This document shows, one piece after another, positions 4,343 to 28,071 of a stretch of 32,000 bases of DNA. Origin of the DNA: Trichodesmium erythraeum IMS101 (GTDB lineage Bacteria > Cyanobacteriota > Cyanobacteriia > Cyanobacteriales > Microcoleaceae); NCBI RefSeq assembly GCF_000014265.1, contig NC_008312.1, forward strand, positions 4,200,001 to 4,232,000. The letters are read 5' to 3'. The translations under genes and the position numbers were made by a program. Below the pieces are notes generated by a model. It searched no databases. It was not told the DNA's origin and saw nothing but the letters and a program-made list of their open reading frames with translations. How positions within the stretch are numbered: the stretch's first letter is position 1; every line of letters starts with the position of its first letter.

Positions 4343-4415
4343 CGGGCCTGGAGGGATTCGAACCCCCGACCTCATGGTCCGTAGCCACGCACTCTATCCA
4401 CTAAGCTACAGGCCC
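4343..4415 (-). tRNA. tRNA-Arg (anticodon ACG)
   Basis: The reverse complement GGGCCTGTAGCTTAGTGGATAGAGTGCGTGGCTACGGACCATGAGGTCGGGGGTTCGAATCCCTCCAGGCCCG folds as a cloverleaf. It has a 7-bp acceptor stem, D arm, anticodon stem CGTGG/CCATG with loop CTACGGA (ACG), a GGGGG/CCCTC T stem with TTCGAAT loop, and discriminator G. No CCA is encoded. Confidence 0.95.
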
Positions 4416-5706: not shown

Positions 5707-6015
5707 ATGGCTAATGGTAGTACAACACAAATAATTGAAAGTTTGGCAGCAGAAATAGGGGATAAAGTTTATATGGATATTACTGGTTGGCATCTCTATT
5801 TATCTGATGCGAAACTACATTTAAATTTGGCAGAAAAGTTTTATCCTATTCTGACTGAAGAAGTACCTTCAGAGGCTCAGGTTATGGAAATATTACAGGG
5901 TGTTCCTGTTAAGTTAGGTGCTGGTAGAAAGCAGGTTCCTTTGATAGATTTATTGCCAATACATTGTCAGAGTGATCTGATGGAGGTTTTGGCAGAGTTT
6001 CGAGAAAATATTTAA
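5707..6015 (+). CDS. conserved cyanobacterial hypothetical protein (possibly DUF3181-like)
   Basis: 102-aa ORF with an ATG start and non-repetitive composition. The family assignment is from memory of similar N-termini (LAAEIG..VY.D...WHLYL) and is not verified. Confidence 0.6.
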   Translation: MANGSTTQIIESLAAEIGDKVYMDITGWHLYLSDAKLHLNLAEKFYPILTEEVPSEAQVMEILQGVPVKLGAGRKQVPLIDLLPIHCQSDLMEVLAEFRENI

Positions 6016-6029
6016 TTTTAACCAATATT

Positions 6030-6074
6030 CTTAGTAAGCATTCAGCTATTAGCGCTTGCTACTTAAGTTTTTTT
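6030..6074 (+). terminator. candidate intrinsic terminator after the 5707..6015 CDS
   Basis: An imperfect hairpin, cttagtaagc ... gcttgctacttaag (two bulges), is followed by a 7-nt T run at 6068-6074. It begins 15 nt after the stop codon. Confidence 0.3.
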
Positions 6075-6453
6075 GTGAAGTCATTGAAAATCTTTGCTAT
6101 TAACACCTAAGGTTTATGGATTCACTTTAATTTATATTTGATAATGAGAGCTTGAAATCTCTCAATACTTTTTACAAATTTATTTTAGATAAAGTCAACT
6201 GCTGAATGTTTAAAAAGAGGAGCTGAGTGATAAATAATGTCAATTTTAAGAAAGAATAATTGTGACTTTTTTATCATAAAAAATTATCTGAAAAATTAGT
6301 TTGGTTGAAGTTATCTATTAATTCCTTAAGCTTTCAATAACTTTCTGGGTAATCTCAGGATTAATTATTAATTAACTTTAACTCTATAATCTTTTATTTT
6401 GTTAGTTTACTCTCAGTAAAAATCAATAAAAAATTAAGGTCTCAAGCTTCCTC

Positions 6454-9105
6454 GTTGAGCTAATAAATAATCTGCTGGTTTCTCAGAAATTACGGATATT
6501 TTATTGGAAAAGTTTAAGTTGAGCTAATAAATAATCTGCTGATTTTTCAGAAATTACGGATATTTTATTGGAAAAGTTTCAGGGGAAATTTATAAGTAAA
6601 AGGTGGTAGCTATAGTTTAGCGATCGCTATTTTTATCTGAGTTATATTTGAGTTAATATTTTTGATAAAACTTGGGATAAGATAGCCTTAAATATCTATT
6701 TATAAATTTAGGTAACTCCAAGTTGAGCTAATAAATAATCTGCTGGTTTTTCAGAAATTACGGATATTTTATTGGAAAAGTTTCAGGGGAAATTTATAAG
6801 TAAAAGGTGGTAGCTATAGTTTAGCGATCGCTATTTTTATCTGAGTTATATTTGAGTTAATATTTTTGATAAAACTTGGGATAAGACAGCCTTAAATATC
6901 TATTTATAAATTTAGGTAACTCCAAGTTGAGCTAATAAATAATCTGCTGGTTTTTCAGAAATTACGGATATTTTATTGGAAAAGTTTAAGGGGAAATTTA
7001 TAAGTAAAAGGTGGTAACTATAGTTTGGCGATCGCTATTTTTATCTGAGTTATATTTGAGTTAATATTTTTGATAAAACTTGGGATAAGATAGCCTTAAA
7101 TATCTATTTATAAATTTAGGTAACTCCAAGTTGAGCTAATAAATAATCTGCTGGTTTTTCAGAAATTACGGATATTTTATTGGAAAAGTTTCAGGGGAAA
7201 TTTATAAGTAAAAGGTGGTAGCTATAGTTTAGCGATCGCTGTTTTTATCTAACTTATATTTGAGTTAATATTTTTGATAAAACTTGGGATAAGACAGTCT
7301 TAAATATCTATTTATAAATTTAGGTAACTCCAAGTTGAGCTAATAAATAATCTGCTGGTTTCTCAGATAAATAATCTGCTGGTTTTTCAGAAATTACGGA
7401 TATTTTATTTGAAAGGTTTAAGGGGAAATTTATAATTAAAAGGTGGTAACTATAGTTTGGCGATCGCTATTTTTATCTGAGTTATATTTGAGTTAATATT
7501 TTTGATAAAACTTGGGATAAGACAGTCTTAAATATCTATTTATAAATTTAGTTAACTCTAAGTTGAGCTGATAAATAATCTGCTGGTTTCTCAGATAAAT
7601 AATCTGCTGGTTTTTCAGAAATTACGGATATTTTATTTGAAAGGTTTAAGGGGAAATTTATAATTAAAAGGTGGTAACTATAGTTTGGCGATCGCTATTT
7701 TTATCTGAGTTATATTTGAGTTAATATTTTTGATAAAACTTGGGATAAGACAGTCTTAAATATCTATTTATAAATTTAGGTAACTCCAAGTTGAGCTAAT
7801 AAATAATCTGCTGGTTTTTCAGAAATTACGGATATTTTATTGGAAAAGTTTCAGGGGAAATTTATAACTAAAAGGTGGTAGCTATAGTTTAGCGATCGCT
7901 ATTTTTATCTGAGTTATATTTGAGTTAATATTTTTGATAAAACTTGGGAGAAGACATTCTTAAATATCTATTTATAAATTTAGGTAACTCCAAGTTGAGC
8001 TAATAAATAATCTGCTGGTTTTTCAGAAATTACGGATATTTTATTGGAAAAGTTTCAGGGGAAATTTATAAGTAAAAGGTGGTAACTATAGTTTGGCGAT
8101 CGCTATTTTTATCTGAGTTATATTTGAGTTAATATTTTTGATAAAACTTGGGATAAGATAGCCTTAAATATCTATTTATAAATTTAGGTAACTCCAAGTT
8201 GAGCTAATAAATAATCTGCTGGTTTTTCAGAAATTACGGATATTTTATTGGAAAAGTTTCAGGGGAAATTTATAAGTAAAAGGTGGTAGCTATAGTTTAG
8301 CGATCGCTATTTTTATCTGAGTTATATTTGAGTTAATATTTTTGATAAAACTTGGGATAAGACAGTCTTAAATATCTATTTATAAATTTAGGTAACTCCA
8401 AGTTGAGCTAATAAATAATCTGCTGGTTTCTCAGAAATTACGGATATTTTATTGGAAAAGTTTCAGGGGAAATTTATAAGTAAAAGGTGGTAGCTATAGT
8501 TTAGCGATCGCTATTTTTATCTGAGTTATATTTGAGTTAATATTTTTGATAAAACTTGGGATAAGACAGCCTTAAATATCTATTTATAAATTTAGGTAAC
8601 TCCAAGTTGAGCTAATAAATAATCTGCTGGTTTTTCAGAAATTACGGATATTTTATTGGAAAAGTTTCAGGGGAAATTTATAAGTAAAAGGTGGTAGCTA
8701 TAGTTTAGCGATCGCTATTTTTATCTGAGTTATATTTGAGTTAATATTTTTGATAAAACTTGGGATAAGACAGTCTTAAATATCTATTTATAAATTTAGG
8801 TAACTCCAAGTTGAGCTAATAAATAATCTGCTGATTTTTCAGAAATTACGGATATTTTATTGGAAAAGTTTAAGGGGAAATTTATAAGTAAAAGGTGGTA
8901 GCTATAGTTTGGCGATCGCTATTTTTATCTGAGTTATATTTGAGTTAATATTTTTGATAAAACTTGGGATAAGATAGCCTTAAATATCTATTTATAAATT
9001 TAGGTAACTCCAAGTTGAGCTAATAAATAATCTGCTGGTTTTTCAGAAATTACGGATATTTTATTGGAAAAGTTTCAGGGGAAATTTATAAGTAAAAGGT
9101 GGTAG
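6454..9105. repeat. tandem array 1: 204-bp unit, 13 units plus a 64-bp partial unit; two units are 228 bp
   Basis: The anchor gttgagc recurs at 6454 (partial), 6518, 6722, 6926, 7130, 7334, 7562, 7790, 7994, 8198, 8402, 8606, 8810 and 9014. Each unit carries one HIP1 site. No ORF of 60 aa or more occurs in any frame. Confidence 0.97.
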
Positions 9106-10269
9106 CTATAGTTTAGCGATCGCTGTTTCTATCCGACTAATACCTTCGCGAATATTTTCAATAGAATTAGCATAAGACAACCTTAAATATCCATCTCCAA
9201 ATTTTCCATAAGCAGTTCCGGGTAATAAAGCAACTCCAGCTTCAGCTAATAAATAATCTGCCAATTTATTGGAACTTATTGGTAATTGTTTCACATTTGG
9301 AAAAGCATAAAAAGCACCTGCTGGTTTTCGACAATTAATACCTGAAATAGAATTTAAACCATCCACAATAACATCACGTCTTTGTTTAAATTCTGCGAAT
9401 ATTTTTTTGACAAACTCCTGAGAATTTTTGATGGCTTCTATGCCAGCTATTTGAGTAAATGAACAAGCACAGGAATTAGAATTTAACATCAATTTATCTA
9501 ACTTTTCTGCTATTGCTTTGGGAGAAATAGAATAACCTAAACGCCATCCAGTCATAGCATAAGTTTTTGAGTGCCCATCTAATAAAATTGTACGTTCTTT
9601 CATACTAGGAAAACTGATGATACTGGTAAATTTTGAGTCGTAGTTTAAGTGGGAGTAAATTTCATCAGAGAGAACATAAAAATTATGTTTAACTGCTAAT
9701 TTAGCTATGGCTTCTAAATACTCAGGAGTTAACACACTACCAGTAGGGTTATGGGGAGAATTAATAATTAATAATTTTGTTTTTTCTGAAATAGAATTAA
9801 CTAGATTATCTATACTAAATTGAAAATCTAATTCCTCTAACAAAGGTAATGGAATAGGTTTCCCTCCCACTAAATTAATTACTGATTCATAAACAGGAAA
9901 TCCAGGGTTTGGATAAATCACTTCATCTCCTGAATTTATTAATGCTAAAAGAGTAAAAAATATGACTGGTTTTGCTCCTGGCATTACTACTACTTCATCA
10001 GAATTAACTGATATATTTCTAGTTTGAGAAATATGTTCTGCTATGACTTCTCGTAACTTTAATAAACCTGCTGCTGGAGTATAAGTTGTATAGCCATCAT
10101 TCATAGCTTGGAAAGCAGCTTCGCGAATATTTTTAGGAGTCTTAAAATCAGGTTGACCTATTTCTAAATGAATAATATTTCGACCTTGAGATTCTAATTG
10201 TTTTGCTTTAGTAAAAACTTCAATTGCAGCATCTCCGCCTAAGCTATTCATTCTTGTTGCAAAATTCAT
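9106..10269 (-). CDS. pyridoxal-phosphate-dependent aminotransferase, class I/II (aspartate-aminotransferase-like)
   Basis: 387 aa. It has the PLP-lysine motif SKTYAMTGWRLGY, NSPHNPTGSV and a typical fold-type-I layout. Confidence 0.93.
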   Translation of the reverse strand: MNFATRMNSLGGDAAIEVFTKAKQLESQGRNIIHLEIGQPDFKTPKNIREAAFQAMNDGYTTYTPAAGLLKLREVIAEHISQTRNISVNSDEVVVMPGAKPVIFFTLLALINSGDEVIYPNPGFPVYESVINLVGGKPIPLPLLEELDFQFSIDNLVNSISEKTKLLIINSPHNPTGSVLTPEYLEAIAKLAVKHNFYVLSDEIYSHLNYDSKFTSIISFPSMKERTILLDGHSKTYAMTGWRLGYSISPKAIAEKLDKLMLNSNSCACSFTQIAGIEAIKNSQEFVKKIFAEFKQRRDVIVDGLNSISGINCRKPAGAFYAFPNVKQLPISSNKLADYLLAEAGVALLPGTAYGKFGDGYLRLSYANSIENIREGISRIETAIAKL

Positions 10270-10708
10270 CTTAAATAATTGCTGGAGATTCCCACTTTAA
10301 TTTTTGATGATCGTGGTGAAAGGAAAGCAACCAGCATATAAATTACTTTCCTCTAAAGTATTCGAGTAAACTTAATTACTCAAAATGTAAACTATCAATT
10401 TTTTTTACGTTTAGTGCTTTTAGATAATTGTTTAAATTCCGTAAATATTTCAGAAATATCAAATAAGTTTAATTGAACTAGAGTATCTAAAACTTGGGCT
10501 AGTTGAGATTGAAAAATTTTGATATTTTTTTGCTTAACTAACTCACGAAAACTATAGGTATAACCCTCAATTTTATGTGTATCTTTGCCAGACTTGTGAC
10601 TGATACTTTGATTTGCTCTGGTTTTAGATATTTTACAAGAGAAATTTAGCGGAACTGTACCTCATAAACTACTGAATGGGCTGTATTTTTTCTACTTCTA
10701 TTCATTTA

Positions 10709-11614
10709 CTAATCTTCTCGGGTAATTCCTAGGATAGATTCATCCCAATAATCTTTAAATTTAGAACCAGACATCTTTTTTATATATAAGTCATTGAAAT
10801 GCTGATTTTGTTCCTCTGTAAAATAATTACGCCAGTCTCCTACTATTCCTTTTCTTAAATGTGGAGCTTCATTTTGATTAATTCTCATCCAATTACAATC
10901 AGCTTTATCATTTTTTTTCATTTCTTCTAATTTACTATCAATTGCTACTTTGTCTATAACTTCTGCAGACACTTTGATTTCTAAAAAAGCTGCTAATTGG
11001 CTCAGACAAGTTTTGATATTTTTTTTCAATTCTTCGTATGTAAGATATAAGACTTGTTGACGAGATGGTAAAAATTTTTCCCAATGCAAGTGAAAATCAA
11101 ACCAACTTCCATAATGTACCTGACCTGATAAATATAATTCAAAAAAGTCATTCCAATTGTCTTGATAAGATATACTCTTTTTTCTTCTCAAATGATGGTA
11201 CATAGAAACAGCAACATCTTTAGGGTTTCTGAGTAGAAATATGTATTTTGTATTCGGTAGTCCTTCGGGTGTTAAATGAGGCCGGCCATAAAAAGTTAAG
11301 ATTCGAGGAGATGGGAGAGATTAAATATACTCGTAAGAACGTTTTTGAGCAGGCTCTAGACATGGAGACAAACAAAACTCTAGCCTGGAAAAAGCTTCCA
11401 TCATATTTAAATTAGGTTGATTGCCTTGATGATTTAAAAGTAAAAGGATCTGCTTTAGCCAAGTAGATCCAGATTTTATATAACAAACAAAAAAAATATC
11501 CTCATTTCTGGTTTTGAAGCGAGTCAGTATGGTATTTACTTTTTCTTCGGTAACAAATTGAGGATATACTATGCCATCTACTATGGAATACCAAGAAGAA
11601 TTTTGAGTTTTCAT
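10709..11614 (-). pseudogene. sulfotransferase-domain gene interrupted by a single in-frame TAA (11321-11323)
   Basis: N-terminal ORF 11321..11614 carries the 5'-PSB-like loop IKSGSTWLKQIL. C-terminal ORF 10709..11203 carries the 3'-PB-like RKGIVGDWRNYFT. Both are in the same frame, and the 117 nt between them also read open (SLPSPRILTFYGRPHLTPEGLPNTKYIFLLRNPKDVAVS). Total length is 302 codons. Confidence 0.8.
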
Positions 11615-17300: not shown

Positions 17301-17356
17301 GTTATGTGAAGCTTTGTATCAGTTTTATAGAGCAGTAATCAGTCATATAAGTAAAT

Positions 17357-18676
17357 AGAGCAACAGTAAATTCATTTTTTTAAGCACTCTAATTTTGCGG
17401 TTGGTGGGAAAATTCCTAACTATTGCGGATAGAGCAACAGTAAATTCATTTTTTTAAGCACTCTAATTTTGCGGTTGGTGGGAAAATTCCTAACTATTGC
17501 GGATAGAGCAACAGTAAATTCATTTTTTTAAGCACTCTAATTTTGCGGTTGGTGGGAAAATTCCTAACTATTGCGGATAGAGCAACAGTAAATTCATTTT
17601 TTTAAGCACTCTAATTTTGCGGTTGGTGGGAAAATTCCTAACTATTGCGGATAGAGCAACAGTAAATTCATTTTTTTAAGCGCTCTAATTGGGCGGTTGG
17701 TGGGAAAATTCCTAACTATTGCGGATAGAGCAATAGTAAATTCATTTTTTTAAGCACTCTAATTTTGCGGTTGGTGGGAAATTCCTAACTATTGCGGATA
17801 GAGCAACAGTAAATTCATTTTTTTAAGCACTCTAATTTTGCGGTTGGTGGGAAATTCCTAACTATTGCGGATAGAGCAACAGTAAATTCATTTTTTTAAG
17901 CACTCTAATTTTGCGGTTGGTGGGAAATTCCTAACTATTGCGGATAGAGCAACAGTAAATTCATTTTTTTAAGCACTCTAATTTTGCGGTTGGTGGAAAA
18001 TTCCTAACTATTGCGGATAGAGCAACAGTAAATTCATTTTTTTAAGCACTCTAATTTTGCGGTTGGTGGAAAATTCCTAACTATTGCGGATAGAGCAACA
18101 GTAAATTCATTTTTTTAAGCACTCTAATTTTGCGGTTGGTGGAAAATTCCTAACTATTGCGGATAGAGCAACAGTAAATTCATTTTTTTAAGCACTCTAA
18201 TTTTGCGGTTGGTGGAAAATTCCTAACTATTGCGGATAGAGCAACAGTAAATTCATTTTTTTAAGCACTCTAATTTTGCGGTTGGTGGAAAATTCCTAAC
18301 TATTGCGGATAGAGCAACAGTAAATTCATTTTTTTAAGCACTCTAATTTTGCGGTTGGTGGAAAATTCCTAACTATTGCGGATAGAGCAACAGTAAATTC
18401 ATTTTTTTAAGCACTCTAATTTTGCGGTTGGTGGAAAATTCCTAACTATTGCGGATAGAGCAATAGTAAATTCATTTTTTTAAGCGCTCTAATTTTGGGG
18501 TTGGTGGAAAATTCCTAACTATTGCGGATAGAGCAACAGTAAATTCATTTTTTTAAGCACTCTAATTTTGGGGTTGGTGGAAAATTCCTAACTATTGCGG
18601 ATAGAGCAACAGTAAATTCATTTTTTTAAGCACTCTAATTTTGGGGTTGGTTCGGAAATTTCTGACTATTGCGGAT
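17357..18676. repeat. tandem array 2: 73/74-bp unit x18
   Basis: Unit starts (agagcaacag) are at 17357, 17431, 17505, 17579, 17653, 17727, 17800, 17873, 17946, 18019, 18092, 18165, 18238, 18311, 18384, 18457, 18530 and 18603. A degenerate partial copy lies just upstream (about 17327-17356). There are no spacers and no ORFs. Confidence 0.97.
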
Positions 18677-20708: not shown

Positions 20709-21551
20709 ATGTATATGTCAAATAAAAATAGCTTAAAATGTAGTATTTCTGGTGTGTTCATTATTGCTTATAAAGAAGATACAACAATTCTAGAAAAAAC
20801 TTTACAGGAACAAGGTTTTAATTATGAACTTCTTAGGCAAAAATATGAGCCAGAATATAAAAGTTATTCTCCCAGTTATCTGACTCTTCTTAACCATAAA
20901 AATGCTTGGATAAAAGCAAGTGAAGAAGAGAAATCAAGTTTAATTATTGAGGCTGACTTTGTTCCTGTCATAAACTTTGGTTTATTACCTTTACCTTTCA
21001 ATTTAGAAAATTATAATGTTGGTATAGCTTGGCTTTACACTTGTGCTCCTCAAATCTATAGTGTTTCTGATGAAAATTATGCTCAAGGTTTTTCAACTTC
21101 TGCAGTGGCTTATATTGTTACACCACGATCAGCTCTCGAATTAATTGAACTAGAAAATGAAGTTCGTCTGAATTCTGGAACTAATAATTATTCAACATGG
21201 GATTCTACTATTGATGAATTTTTAAGAGGTAGAGGTTTCCAAAATTTTGTTCCTTTTCGGAATTATGGGGAACATGGAGGATTACCTAATTTAGAACATT
21301 ATCGTTATGGTTTAAGTAGAGTTCATAGAGCTGACATTCTTTATGATCGACTAGCTTTTATGCCAATATATGCTGGTAGGGATAAGTTTAAAATATGGAG
21401 ATTATTTAGGGAAAGATTTCAGGGGAGATTGAAAGGTATATTGCGTTTACTTTTTGGTAAATATTTACGATTAAAAATAATCAGGAATTCTAGTTTTCCT
21501 CTCAGGCTAATTCGCTTTGCAGTTTGGCGTCAATTATTTTTGAGAATTTAG
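20709..21551 (+). CDS. hypothetical protein, possibly glycosyltransferase family 25-like, with a basic amphipathic C-terminal tail
   Basis: 280-aa ORF. The pattern LTLLNHKNAWIKA ... SLIIEADFVP ... AYIVTPRSALELIE resembles the GT25 layout (weak, from memory). Its last 78 bp form part of array 3. Confidence 0.65.
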   Translation: MYMSNKNSLKCSISGVFIIAYKEDTTILEKTLQEQGFNYELLRQKYEPEYKSYSPSYLTLLNHKNAWIKASEEEKSSLIIEADFVPVINFGLLPLPFNLENYNVGIAWLYTCAPQIYSVSDENYAQGFSTSAVAYIVTPRSALELIELENEVRLNSGTNNYSTWDSTIDEFLRGRGFQNFVPFRNYGEHGGLPNLEHYRYGLSRVHRADILYDRLAFMPIYAGRDKFKIWRLFRERFQGRLKGILRLLFGKYLRLKIIRNSSFPLRLIRFAVWRQLFLRI

Positions 21552-22561
21552 GGAATAGGTAATTTTAATAGGGAGAAGGAGGAGATGGTAAGGTTTGAAC
21601 TTTAGAACATTTTTTTGTGTTTTATATTAGTATTTAAATTTTTGTTCGGATGATTTTTTGTATTATCTGAACTTTATGGAATTAAGATAAATATGATTTG
21701 TTATCCAATAATTATGAATAATCAACTACAATTCTCTTACAAATAAAAGTAATCAGGAATTCTAGTTTTCCTCTCAGGCTAATTCGCTTTGCAGTTTGGC
21801 GTCAATTATTTTTGAGAATTTAGGGAATAGGTAATTTTAATAGGGAGAAGGAGGAGATGGTAAGGTTTTAACTTTAGAACATTTTTTTGTATTTTATATT
21901 AGTATTTAAATTTTTGTTCGGATGATTTTTTGTATTATCTGAACTTTATGGAATTAAGATAAATATGATTTGTTATCCAATAATTATGAATAATCAACTA
22001 AAATTCTCTTACAAATAAAAATAATCAGGAATTCTAGTTTTCCTCTCAGGCTAATTCGCTTTGCAGTTTGGCGTCAATTATTTTTGAGAATTTAGGGAAT
22101 AGGGAATTTTAATAGGGAGAAGGAAGAGATGGTAAGGTTTGAACTTTAGAACATTTTTTTGTGTTTTATATTAGTATTTAAATTTTTGTTCGGATGATTT
22201 TTTGTATTATCTGAACTTTATAGACTTAAGATAAATATGATTTGTTATCCAATAATTATGAATAATCAACTAAAATTCTCTTACAAATAAAAATAATCAG
22301 GAATTCTAGTTTTCCTCTCAGGCTAATTCGCTTTGCAGTTTGGCGTCAATTATTTTTGAGAATTTAGGGAATAGGGAATTTTAATAGGGAGAAGGAAGAG
22401 ATGGTAAGGTTTGAACTTTAGAACATTTTTTTGTGTTTTATATTAGTATTTAAATTTTTGTTCGGATGATTTTTTGTATTATCTGAACTTTATAGACTTA
22501 AGATAAATATGATTTGTTATCCAATAATTATGAATAATCAACTAAAATTCTCTTACAAATA
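21474..22561. repeat. tandem array 3: 272-bp unit x4, spanning the upstream gene 3' end, the intergenic region and the sfsA 5' end
   Basis: The anchor aatcaggaat occurs at 21479, 21751, 22023 and 22295. The junctions (tacaaata|aaaataatcagg) lie in an aaata microhomology. Copies are near-identical. Confidence 0.95.
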
Positions 22562-23261
22562 TCCTTCTCTTGAACCAGGTATTTTAATTAAACGTTATAA
22601 AAGGTTTCTGGCAGATATAGAGTTAAAGTCTGGAGGAATTATTACTGCTCACTGCCCAAATACGGGTCCAATGACTGGAGTTTCTACTCCGGGAAGTAAT
22701 GTTATGGTTTCTTATAGTAATAATCCAAAACGAAAATTAGCTTACACTTGGGAATTAATTGAAGTAACTGATAATGAACCGACTTGGGTGGGAATTAATA
22801 CGGCTTTACCAAATCGAGTTATTAAGTTGGCGTTGGCCGAAAATTTATTTCCTGAATTGGGAGATTATTATGAAGTTAAAACGGAAGTTGTTTATGGAAA
22901 AGATAGGAAAAGTAGGGTTGATTTTAAGTTAATTAGTGAGACTAAAAATATTTATCTTGAGGTTAAGAATACTACTTGGGCAGATGGAAGAGTTGCTTTA
23001 TTTCCAGATACGGTTACAAAAAGAGGGCAAAAACATTTACGTGAATTAATAGGGGTAGTTGAACAAGGGGAAAGAGCTGTATGTTTGTTTTTGATAAATC
23101 GTGGTGATTGTTATCAGTTTGCTCCTGGAGATGTTGCTGATCATGATTATGGTAAACTTTTGAGAGAAGCTATGATTAAAGGGGTGGAAATTTTGCCTTG
23201 TAGATTTATAGTTACTCCTCAAGAAATTAATTATTTGGGGATAGCAGAATTTATCAATTAG
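22509..23261 (+). CDS. sfsA: DNA/RNA nuclease SfsA (sugar fermentation stimulation protein homologue)
   Basis: GILIKRYKRFLADIEL ... AHCPNTGPM ... RVDF ... LEVKNTT ... KRGQKHLRELI is the SfsA signature layout. The real start is probably the second ATG at 22530 (MNNQLKF). Confidence 0.92.
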   Translation: MICYPIIMNNQLKFSYKYPSLEPGILIKRYKRFLADIELKSGGIITAHCPNTGPMTGVSTPGSNVMVSYSNNPKRKLAYTWELIEVTDNEPTWVGINTALPNRVIKLALAENLFPELGDYYEVKTEVVYGKDRKSRVDFKLISETKNIYLEVKNTTWADGRVALFPDTVTKRGQKHLRELIGVVEQGERAVCLFLINRGDCYQFAPGDVADHDYGKLLREAMIKGVEILPCRFIVTPQEINYLGIAEFIN

Positions 23262-24220
23262 GATATTGATTTTTGGATAAAAAAACTTAATAAAATATTC
23301 AATCGTTTTAAGTATGAGAAGTTGTTTGAGAAGTACTTTTAGAATTTTATTAATGTTTTTAAAATGTACTTTTTTTCAACTATTTTAAAGAATATATTGG
23401 GGGTTTTAAAGTTTATATTATGTTGAAAATAGGTTACGAGATATTTTTTTATAGGTTGATAAGCTGCTTCTGAACTTATGTGATTTTTTTTATCTATAGT
23501 AGGTGATTATAAATTTAGTTTTTACAATAGTTAGATACTTTCTATGACACATACTATAATAGTGGTAAATAAATTTTATTTTTGGAATTGATAATTATGG
23601 TTTACTGATTAACTATCAAATGATTAACTAATATTGATAAGTGCTCTTTTTTTGTTGAAAAAAATGGCGACTTTTCAGTCTATAAAGCTAGCTTATATTA
23701 TTTTTTTTAGCTAACCATGGCAGATGGCAGCAAGGAACAAATATATGTGGATACTTTTTAATTATTTTCTATTTATTCTGGCTCCTAACTCTTGGCTTTT
23801 ACTGTAACTAACACATACTTTTTCAGTAAGCTATAATTAATTTTTTTGGTCGATAGAGATTAATTTATTATAATAGTTTAATCGATGGTAATTAAAGCAA
23901 ATAAGAGTTTTAAAACTTTCCATTTTTTTGTCTGCTAATATTTGGATATGCTAAGTATCATCTTCACGAAGATAGAAAATAAATGTATAGTAAAAAATAT
24001 TTTTTATGCTTTATTTTCAATTTTGTTAATTTATGAAAAAAATATTTTAATGCTTATAAAAACCTGTACTTCTCTAGGCTATAAGTATAAAACTTAATTC
24101 TTCTAATATATTAATATATAAATTTAGTAGTTGCTATAAATCAAGAATAATCTTATATATTTTTTAATTTTGCTGCACCACTAAATTAATCATTATTGAC
24201 TTATTTTGCTGTGCCAAGAA

Positions 24221-24363
24221 TACTTCAATCAATATTTTTTCTCTATCAATATGCAAAAAAAAAGGGTTGCCTAAATTATAATTGTAAGTGGATAAAAATA
24301 CTTTAATCAATATTTTTTCTCTATCAATATGCAAAAAAAGGGTGACTTAAATTATAATTGTAA
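24221..24363. repeat. direct duplication, about 66-bp core with a 78-bp period, x2
   Basis: tactt[c/t]aatcaatattttttctctatcaatatgcaaaaaaa..ggg...aaattataattgtaa occurs at 24221 and 24299, about 160 bp upstream of the nuclease gene. Confidence 0.85.
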
Positions 24364-27749: not shown

Positions 27750-28071
27750 GATGAACTTTTATGTTGTATCTTTGTAAATTAAGAATTTGTTAGTTATTTA
27801 GGAGTTAAAAGGTAGGGATAAATAATTTAGGAAGAAGCTTAAAAAATCCTTCAATATTCCCTATCTATCCTATTTATTAAAATATATCTTTTCTGGAATT
27901 AGCTCCAATTGATGAGACTTGATGTTGTATATTTGTGAATTGAGAATCTATTAGTTATTTAGGAGTTAAAAGGTAGGAATAAATAATTTAGGAAAAAGCT
28001 TGAAAATTTCTTCAATATTCCCTATCTATTCTATTTATTAAAATATATCTGTTCTGGAATTAGCTCCAATT
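27750..28071. repeat. tandem duplication, 161-bp unit x2
   Basis: gatga[a/g]ac.t..atgttgtat.tttgt.aatt.agaat ... ttaggagttaaaaggtagg ... ttcaatattccctatcta ... tggaattagctccaatt occurs at 27750 and 27911. There are several substitutions between the copies. Confidence 0.85.

Follow-up and report, generated by a model that had tools for sequence, protein, structure and literature searches.

The 32,000-nucleotide stretch of genomic DNA from Trichodesmium erythraeum IMS101 analyzed here (the window) carries, directly downstream of a minus-strand aminotransferase gene, a tandem array in which the 3' end of that gene, stop codon included, has been copied, decayed, and homogenized, exactly in phase with the intact gene's stop codon (gene at 9106–10269, array at 6454–9105). 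The best reading of this array is that genome dynamics produced it as a side effect and that it is no dedicated element. It is probable that a near-neutral tandem duplication across the stop codon decayed and was repeatedly re-expanded and homogenized by unequal recombination, with some exchange into the last codons of the gene. That the array is a decayed, homogenized copy of the gene's own 3' end, in gene register, had been put forward in a first-pass annotation made from the sequence alone, and both the alignment and the anchor positions agree with it. The features of the locus are listed here.

9106–10269, minus strand: intact class I/II aminotransferase gene, 387 aa (PF00155, E = 2.6e-72), with a product identical to ABG51905.1 / WP_011612267.1 of T. 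erythraeum IMS101; a literature search turned up no paper citing these accessions.
9106–9300, minus strand: gene tail including the stop codon, ~195 nt, source of the gene-derived part of the unit (cross-species alignment).
9071–9105, minus strand: 35-nt remnant of the ancestral 3' flank, sense CTACCACCTTTTACTTATAAATTTCCCCTGAAACT, directly after the true stop and repeated in every unit.
6610–9105, minus strand: 12 full pseudo-3'-end units, defined by Tandem Repeats Finder and anchor spacing, each closing with a pseudo-stop codon (CTA on the plus strand).
6454–6609, minus strand: distal array end, made of a 92-nt partial unit (6518–6609) and a 64-nt duplicate of part of that partial unit (6454–6517).
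7343–7391, no strand assigned: 24-nt internal duplication (ATAAATAATCTGCTGGTTTCTCAG twice) in the unit starting at 7222 (Tandem Repeats Finder).
7570–7619, no strand assigned: second instance of the 24-nt internal duplication, in the unit following the 7222 unit.

The array comprises 12 full units (ten of 204 nt and two of 228 nt) and 156 nt of partial-unit sequence. Tandem Repeats Finder reports a period of 204 nt over 6516–9191 with 12.9 copies and 92% matches, an additional 408-nt higher-order period, and a 64-nt partial repeat present twice at 6454–6579. The anchor CTATAGTTT occurs at 6610, 6814, and onward to 8902 and 9106, with a step of 204 nt except for the units at 7222 and 7450 (228 nt), and the final anchor at 9106 is the true stop codon together with the last codons of the aminotransferase open reading frame (ORF). 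A 204-bp period that runs unbroken into the gene end at 9106, as first described, is therefore what both the repeat finder and the anchors return. The distal edge of the array falls within the gene-derived part (...AGCTCAAC). The ten 204-nt units share a mean identity of 98.4% (minimum 97.1%), and over all 12 units 18 positions vary, with the variants distributed as a mosaic. The earlier description of all units as opening with an identical gene-end sequence holds for the seven of 12 that carry the exact 19-mer; the other five have G at position 10.

Aligned to positions 9106–9405, the consensus unit scores 103, compared with 4.7 ± 3.3 for 1000 dinucleotide shuffles (z about 30). Similarity beyond the first 19 nt, on which the earlier proposal had staked itself, was upheld: without those 19 nt the unit still scores 65 against 5.2 ± 3.2 in the shuffles (z = 18.7), and because this is far above the shuffled controls, the proposed derivation from the gene stands. 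Over the 169 aligned gene-derived positions, the unit and the gene tail are 76% identical with 41 mismatches, which matches a divergence judged by eye at about one position in four. The deletions had been estimated at about 15 and 8 nt; the alignment instead places one 23-nt deletion, one 6-nt deletion, and one 1-nt insertion. The substitutions are biased toward AT, as 22 of the 41 mismatches are GC to AT changes and the GC content falls from 34% to 27%.

A multiple alignment with orthologous loci shows that the IMS101 unit consists of ~169 nt from the last ~195 nt of the gene and 35 nt of ancestral 3' flank. When the 35-nt part was compared with the true 3' flank of Okeania sp. SIO2F4 and of contig L099, its score was reached by 0 of 2000 shuffles; against gene positions 9295–9400 there was no significant match, with 815 of 2000 shuffles reaching the score. 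A unit derived wholly from gene sequence up to 9340 was therefore rejected, since its last 35 nt fit the orthologous 3' flanks and not the gene. Within IMS101, the last 70 nt of the unit match 9262–9345 marginally (96 of 2000 shuffles reach the score), and the cross-species alignment assigns the gene-proximal ~35 nt of these 70 nt to the gene, back to about 9300, the real upstream boundary of gene homology, which is marked by the 'ttggaaaag' block. The patchy likeness of the last 70 nt to 9262–9340 reported in the first-pass annotation is thus genuine for the proximal ~35 nt, including 'ttggaaaag', whereas the last 35 nt are flank and the 'ctgctggtttt' match is spurious. The presence of former 3' flank in the unit means that the founding duplication spanned the stop codon and was not confined to coding sequence.

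The units have no coding capacity that we could find. The longest ORF in the array, in any frame, is a TTG-initiated remnant of the pseudo-tail of 22 aa, which bears out the earlier statement that all frames are closed, and the proposed pseudo-tail translation FIKNINSNITQIKIAIAKL-stop was confirmed by direct reading of the sequence. Searching with the window proteins by tblastn did not find the array units, which are invisible to it because of the broken reading frame. No conserved ORF with a start codon, as expected of precursor-peptide or small-protein genes, is present in each unit. A CRISPR array was rejected because whole 204-nt units repeat and there are no unique spacers. The window does not encode a reverse transcriptase (its ORFs of 80 aa or more lack the domain), nor does it encode a transposase or a recombinase.

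Pseudo-3'-ends also follow the orthologous gene in other Trichodesmium, in Dapis, and in Okeania, with unit lengths of 193–273 nt and differing assembled copy numbers. In Dapis sp. BLCC M172, whose protein is 93% identical, three units of 193–255 nt and a partial unit are found, each unit being made of about 125 nt of flank and the last 70–90 nt of the gene. An early MAFFT alignment had suggested that the Dapis units share the 23-nt deletion and a 'CAGATT' block with the gene; this was rejected because comparison with the Okeania SIO2F4 flank identifies the Dapis segment in question as flank. Okeania sp. KiyG1 has several copies, including a 273-nt array of three, and its final copy is nearly complete and followed by ancestral flank. 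Scaffold L092 carries a 266-nt array of 2.9 copies, in which the unit is about 45 nt of flank and the last ~235 nt of the gene, and metagenome contig L107 holds a complex set of pseudo-tail fragments. The layout in Okeania SIO2F4, a single near-complete pseudo-tail after ~175 nt of flank and then flank again, is the simple picture of one tandem duplication. Contigs L104 and L112 contain no pseudo-copy, and the downstream region is replaced in both. A scan of Joint Genome Institute (JGI) metagenomes with a unit-specific pattern, which does match the window and the retrieved loci, gave 0 matches.

Two unit types occur in other Trichodesmium: an A-type of 204 nt, 96–97% identical to the IMS101 units, and a B-type of ~229–235 nt that lacks the 23-nt deletion and is 82–85% identical to them. 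Their order on contig L101 is gene, A units, and then B units, forming a hybrid array, and on contig L113 a B-type unit directly follows the stop. Units are more alike within IMS101 than between genomes, as concerted evolution predicts, and the changes that set IMS101 units apart from A-type units elsewhere in Trichodesmium are fixed in every one of them. From species to species, the unit type changes and so does the number of copies assembled; variation within species is masked, as short-read assemblies collapse repeats. The orthologous proteins, otherwise 90–93% conserved, vary markedly between lineages in their C-terminal ~15 residues (P0124, P0002, P0005, and P0131), with tails ...IETAIAKL, ...IKMAIAQL, ...IKTAIVKL, and ...MKIAVEKFS, and one Okeania RefSeq orthologue is truncated at 370 aa with the tail ...GYLRLYTRKFH. 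This may be a trace of recombination with pseudo-copies that have been deleted.

The first-pass annotation had offered two histories, in which the units were either homogenized or recently amplified from an old pseudo-copy, and elements of both are retained. The pseudo-copy is old. The 6-nt deletion is common to Trichodesmium A and B units and to the copies of Okeania SIO2F4 and L107 (the last copy of KiyG1 and the copies of L092 do not have it), and since it is shared across genera, the founding duplication is older than their split. Moreover, at two codons where the IMS101 gene has changed to GAA ACA, the units retain the ancestral AAA ATA; the first of these codons is AAA in the Dapis and Okeania genes, and the second is ATA, ATG, or GTG depending on the lineage. 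The units themselves are young or homogenized, as indicated by their 98.4% identity and by the fixed differences specific to IMS101. Every IMS101 unit contains the HIP1 octamer GCGATCGC, which is broken in Dapis and in both the A and the B units of the other Trichodesmium.

With regard to tempo, the synonymous divergence (dS) of the gene is 0.32 between IMS101 and Dapis and 0.39 between IMS101 and Okeania SIO2F4, and the raw distance of 24% between unit and gene is of the order of, or above, half of these between-genus values. This distance would be expected of a neutral copy somewhat older than the genus split. A-type units of IMS101 and of contigs L099 and L101 differ by 3–4%, and the dS of the gene between the same pairs is 0.024. 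The units therefore diverge at about the synonymous rate and give no sign of constraint on their sequence.

Unequal exchange would fit several features: variants shared as a mosaic, a higher-order period of 408 nt, subduplications of 24 and 64 nt, and the hybrid A and B array of L101. Exchange appears to reach the gene as well. The last 19 nt of the gene and the adjoining flank are identical to seven of the 12 IMS101 units, and the penultimate codon is AAA in both the gene and the units of IMS101 and CAA in both the gene and the units of L101. In L113 the gene also has CAA at this codon, and the contig stops before the unit's own tail, leaving a truncated unit. As CAA is the older state of the penultimate codon in the pseudo-copy, the pattern suggests that conversion may have proceeded in both directions across the border of gene and array. 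On a larger scale, positions 8795–10467 of IMS101, which include the gene and A units, are 97–99% identical to L099 and L101, whereas the neighboring genes (MFS/MoaC, DUF3181, DUF4403, and DUF6492) are 87–93% identical in the same comparison, indicating that this segment was recently exchanged between Trichodesmium species with one end-point inside the array.

The comparative anatomy is consistent with a history in four steps. A tandem duplication of ~365–400 nt, covering the last ~195 nt of the gene, the stop codon, and the 3' flank, would have occurred before Trichodesmium, Dapis, and Okeania split. The upstream copy stayed attached to the rest of the gene, which therefore remained intact, and the downstream copy, having no start, would have been non-functional from the outset. 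The second step, decay, can be read from the alignments as AT-biased substitutions, the 6-nt deletion, and a flank cut to 35 nt, with the T. erythraeum type losing 23 nt more. Once at least two copies were present, unequal crossing-over or replication slippage could have driven expansion and homogenization separately in each lineage, giving in IMS101 the 12 full units that are 98.4% alike; the pattern is observed, and the mechanism is the part that we infer. Finally, the covariation of the final codons and the units between species is suggestive of exchange extending into the last ~19 nt of the gene.

Three considerations weigh against a near-neutral origin. Tandem direct repeats are usually lost fast, yet the pseudo-tail array has been kept or re-expanded in at least six lineages here, and such persistence at one locus could point to selection for retention. 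In addition, the estimate of a neutral rate draws on a small number of sites, and the gene used for it had recently passed between species. Finally, the Tery_0080 repeats, the one comparable array in the IMS101 genome to have been examined experimentally, are the most highly transcribed noncoding RNA (ncRNA) locus there (PMC4143802). The signals that bear on transcription of the aminotransferase array are listed here.

7409–7436 and 7637–7664, plus strand: predicted promoter-like TTGAAA-16-TATAAT (11 of 12 consensus positions), in two units only.
L105 4155–4234, L091 10794–10873, and L011 7165–7244: 3'-flank hairpin of Okeania and Dapis, identified by folding.

The main alternative reading is that the array is a multicopy ncRNA locus like the Tery_0080 repeats. 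Each unit would then have a plus-strand promoter whose transcripts are complementary to the pseudo-tails, and those started in the last unit would be complementary to the real gene's 3' end; such RNAs might regulate the aminotransferase mRNA or act elsewhere. The precedent lies in the same genome and has the same geometry, as the Tery_0080 array is transcribed on the forward strand from one transcription start site (TSS) per repeat to give an ncRNA of ~260 nt (PMC4143802). Likewise, 26.7% of the mapped TSS in the IMS101 genome are intergenic, and the array persists across three genera. In units other than the two with TTGAAA-16-TATAAT, the same place, where flank remnant meets gene fragment, holds the plus-strand sequence TTGGAA-17-TATAAG. 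These junction sites are oriented antisense to the pseudo-tails and, as weak promoter-like sequences, could give antisense RNA. However, promoter-like matches in the array are no more frequent than in shuffles (18 versus 18.2 ± 3.9), the −10 box of the common variant does not end in the conserved T, and in B-type and Okeania units the putative −10 is, by eye, TACAAC. Neither strand of the units shows excess folding energy over shuffles (z = −1.0 and −0.95), a gathering-threshold Rfam scan of the window matched only a tRNA at 4343–4415 and nothing in the array, and no terminator-like sites lie inside the units. With boundaries that differ between genera and a rate of change close to the synonymous one, the units conserve no RNA in common, and we regard this explanation as unlikely.

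Transcription might also enter the array from the gene itself. The true 3' flank of Okeania and Dapis forms, after the stop, a 10–13-bp AU-rich hairpin followed by a U-rich tract, and G-U/A-U differences between species preserve the pairing; this element is likely a terminator, to judge from its predicted fold. The Trichodesmium unit does not contain the hairpin and U tract, so that aminotransferase transcripts may run into the array.

A broader proposal would take the pseudo-3'-end arrays to be a selected, recurrent device of the Trichodesmium/Okeania/Dapis clade, in which duplication of a gene tail and a promoter born at the junction would produce dosage-tunable antisense or decoy RNAs acting on the 3' end of the parent mRNA. 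The Tery_0080 and aminotransferase arrays would then belong to a wider class that makes up part of the clade's 40% noncoding DNA. We consider this speculative and quite improbable.

It is also conceivable that the pseudo-tails act as a reservoir of donors that rewrite the C terminus of the gene by gene conversion, in the manner of silent cassettes. The last 19 nt of the gene are identical to most IMS101 units, the penultimate codon covaries between gene and units (K in IMS101 and Q in L101, the L113 unit being truncated), orthologue C termini are variable with one Okeania protein ending at 370 aa, and the last 195 nt of the gene have a somewhat greater dS than the remainder. However, the units are frame-broken and nearly identical, so that there is no diversity on offer, and the gene changes specific to IMS101 (GAA ACA; CCAATAAATT) are not found in the units. 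Furthermore, a housekeeping-type pyridoxal phosphate (PLP)-dependent aminotransferase has no obvious gain from a variable tail, and the exchange that is observed is what passive unequal recombination would be expected to leave. A donor function is therefore very improbable.

The copy number of 13 is taken from the IMS101 assembly alone, a single assembly, and every short-read assembly collapses or breaks at the array, two of them with N gaps. An assembler that inflated one or two units to 13 is nevertheless scarcely credible, given that a structured mosaic at 18 positions and a 24-nt insertion in two adjacent units are not features made by assemblers, that at least three units are seen in related species, and that pseudo-stop/flank junctions recur across independent samples. 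The same aminotransferase protein is encoded on contigs from many independent samples; the short-read contigs among them break 11–230 nt after the stop or collapse the array to 0–1 unit, and the collapsed ones still hold the pseudo-stop/flank junction, which shows that the repeat exists in natural populations.

The tandem duplication reading gains a companion elsewhere in the window. A second gene-end array at 21465–22561 consists of four 272-nt units that are 98% identical, each running from the last 28 codons of the ORF at 20709–21551 through the entire intergenic region into the first 17 codons of sfsA (22509–23261). A shared AAATA marks the junction; the upstream gene is completed by the first copy, and sfsA begins in the last. 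It is a younger case of tandem duplication seeded from gene ends, the second in the window.

Further observations concern the surroundings of the two arrays. The spacer beyond the distal end of the aminotransferase array holds the following features.

6016–6453, no strand assigned: spacer of unique sequence that separates the array from the convergent DUF3181 gene (5707–6015, plus strand).
6145–6164 and 6343–6360, plus strand: terminator-like hairpins in the spacer (terminator scan).

Upstream of the aminotransferase gene, a sulfotransferase is split in IMS101 into minus-strand ORFs of 164 and 97 aa (10709–11203 and 11321–11614). Okeania SIO2C2 (L104) and Trichodesmium contig L113 carry an intact version of 301–306 aa, and strain GBRTRLIN201 one of 197 aa; the split IMS101 version is probably a pseudogene. 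A 73-nt array of 18 units that are 98% identical lies at 17355–18676, just downstream of murJ, and homologous 72–75-nt arrays with much more diverged units (69–78% matches) sit at the corresponding location in Dapis and two further Trichodesmium (L011 2491–3279, L099 1–664, and L101 917–1956). This murJ-side array has a conserved block able to form an 8-bp hairpin (ACUGUUGC-N7-GCAAUAGU on the murJ-sense strand), for which five consensus units showed no compensatory changes. An origin of the 73-nt array from the end of murJ was rejected (8 of 500 shuffles reach the score). Smaller two-copy repeats occur at 1573–1720, 24219–24363, and 27761–28071. Altogether, about 52% of the window lies in ORFs of at least 80 aa, and the three large tandem arrays (5.1 kb), two of them derived from gene ends and the 73-nt one not, take up 16% of its 32 kb.

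Trichodesmium genomes are known to be repeat-rich, and the protein-coding share of the Trichodesmium genome is only about 60%, with a similar value in Dapis. The aminotransferase locus provides one concrete source of the noncoding DNA of this clade, in that duplications straddling a gene end spare the gene, decay, and re-amplify. The series from the single duplicate of Okeania SIO2F4 to the 13 homogenized units of IMS101 forms a dated trajectory for such DNA, and this comparative series in three genera, together with the 272-nt array, shows one route by which noncoding DNA arises. Moreover, sequence appears to pass between the array and the final codons of a working gene, and the array has served as an end-point of recombination between species. 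Should its transcription resemble that of the Tery_0080 repeats, it would provide a second and simpler model for the origin of abundant repeat RNAs.

Among known systems, one close likeness is to the concerted evolution of satellite or ribosomal DNA-like repeats by unequal crossing-over, as the units are arranged head to tail and are far more homogeneous within the array than between species. Similarly, the 408-nt higher-order period, the mosaic variants, the diverged edge copy, and the differences in assembled copy number between lineages are shared with tandem duplications that undergo concerted evolution. The array differs from an ordinary tandem duplication in that its seed extends across a stop codon, selection maintains one edge copy as the end of a functional gene, and the copies have been kept at the locus across three genera. 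Trichodesmium also has a diversity-generating retroelement (DGR) with 12 targets (PMC4143802), and an imperfect noncoding copy of a gene 3' end near that gene resembles the template and variable repeats of such an element. However, the aminotransferase copies are many and in tandem and contain indels, and a DGR was rejected because only 17 of the 41 mismatches have A in the unit, the indels are 23 and 6 nt long, and no reverse transcriptase is present. With silent cassettes such as those of pilE/pilS and vlsE, the array shares promoterless partial copies beside an expressed gene and signs of exchange at the gene end, whereas its copies are nearly identical to one another, frame-broken, and AT-decayed, and the target is a metabolic enzyme.

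A close counterpart is found in the same genome. The first-pass annotation knew of no described role for an array seeded by a gene end; such an array had in fact been reported in IMS101 by Pfreundt et al. (2014, Sci Rep 4:6187; PMC4143802), who mapped 6,080 TSS and found that the most abundant RNA comes from a >6-kb array of seven repeats of 736–973 nt. That array lies downstream of the reverse-strand gene Tery_0080, and each of its repeats holds a copy of the 3' part of that gene (PMC4143802). The aminotransferase array likewise sits directly downstream of a reverse-strand gene, and the defining arrangement, a tandem array at the 3' end of a gene with repeats that include the duplicated 3' part of that gene, is found here too. 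The Tery_0080 repeats are >96% identical to one another, with the outermost repeat more diverged (PMC4143802). The two arrays differ in that the seven Tery_0080 repeats are mostly without similarity to anything, whereas the 12–13 units of 204 nt described here are almost wholly gene tail and flank; moreover, the Tery_0080 array has been shown to yield ncRNA, and the aminotransferase array is known here from its sequence. Gene-end-seeded arrays have thus already been described in IMS101, though unexplained, and the aminotransferase array is a further example.

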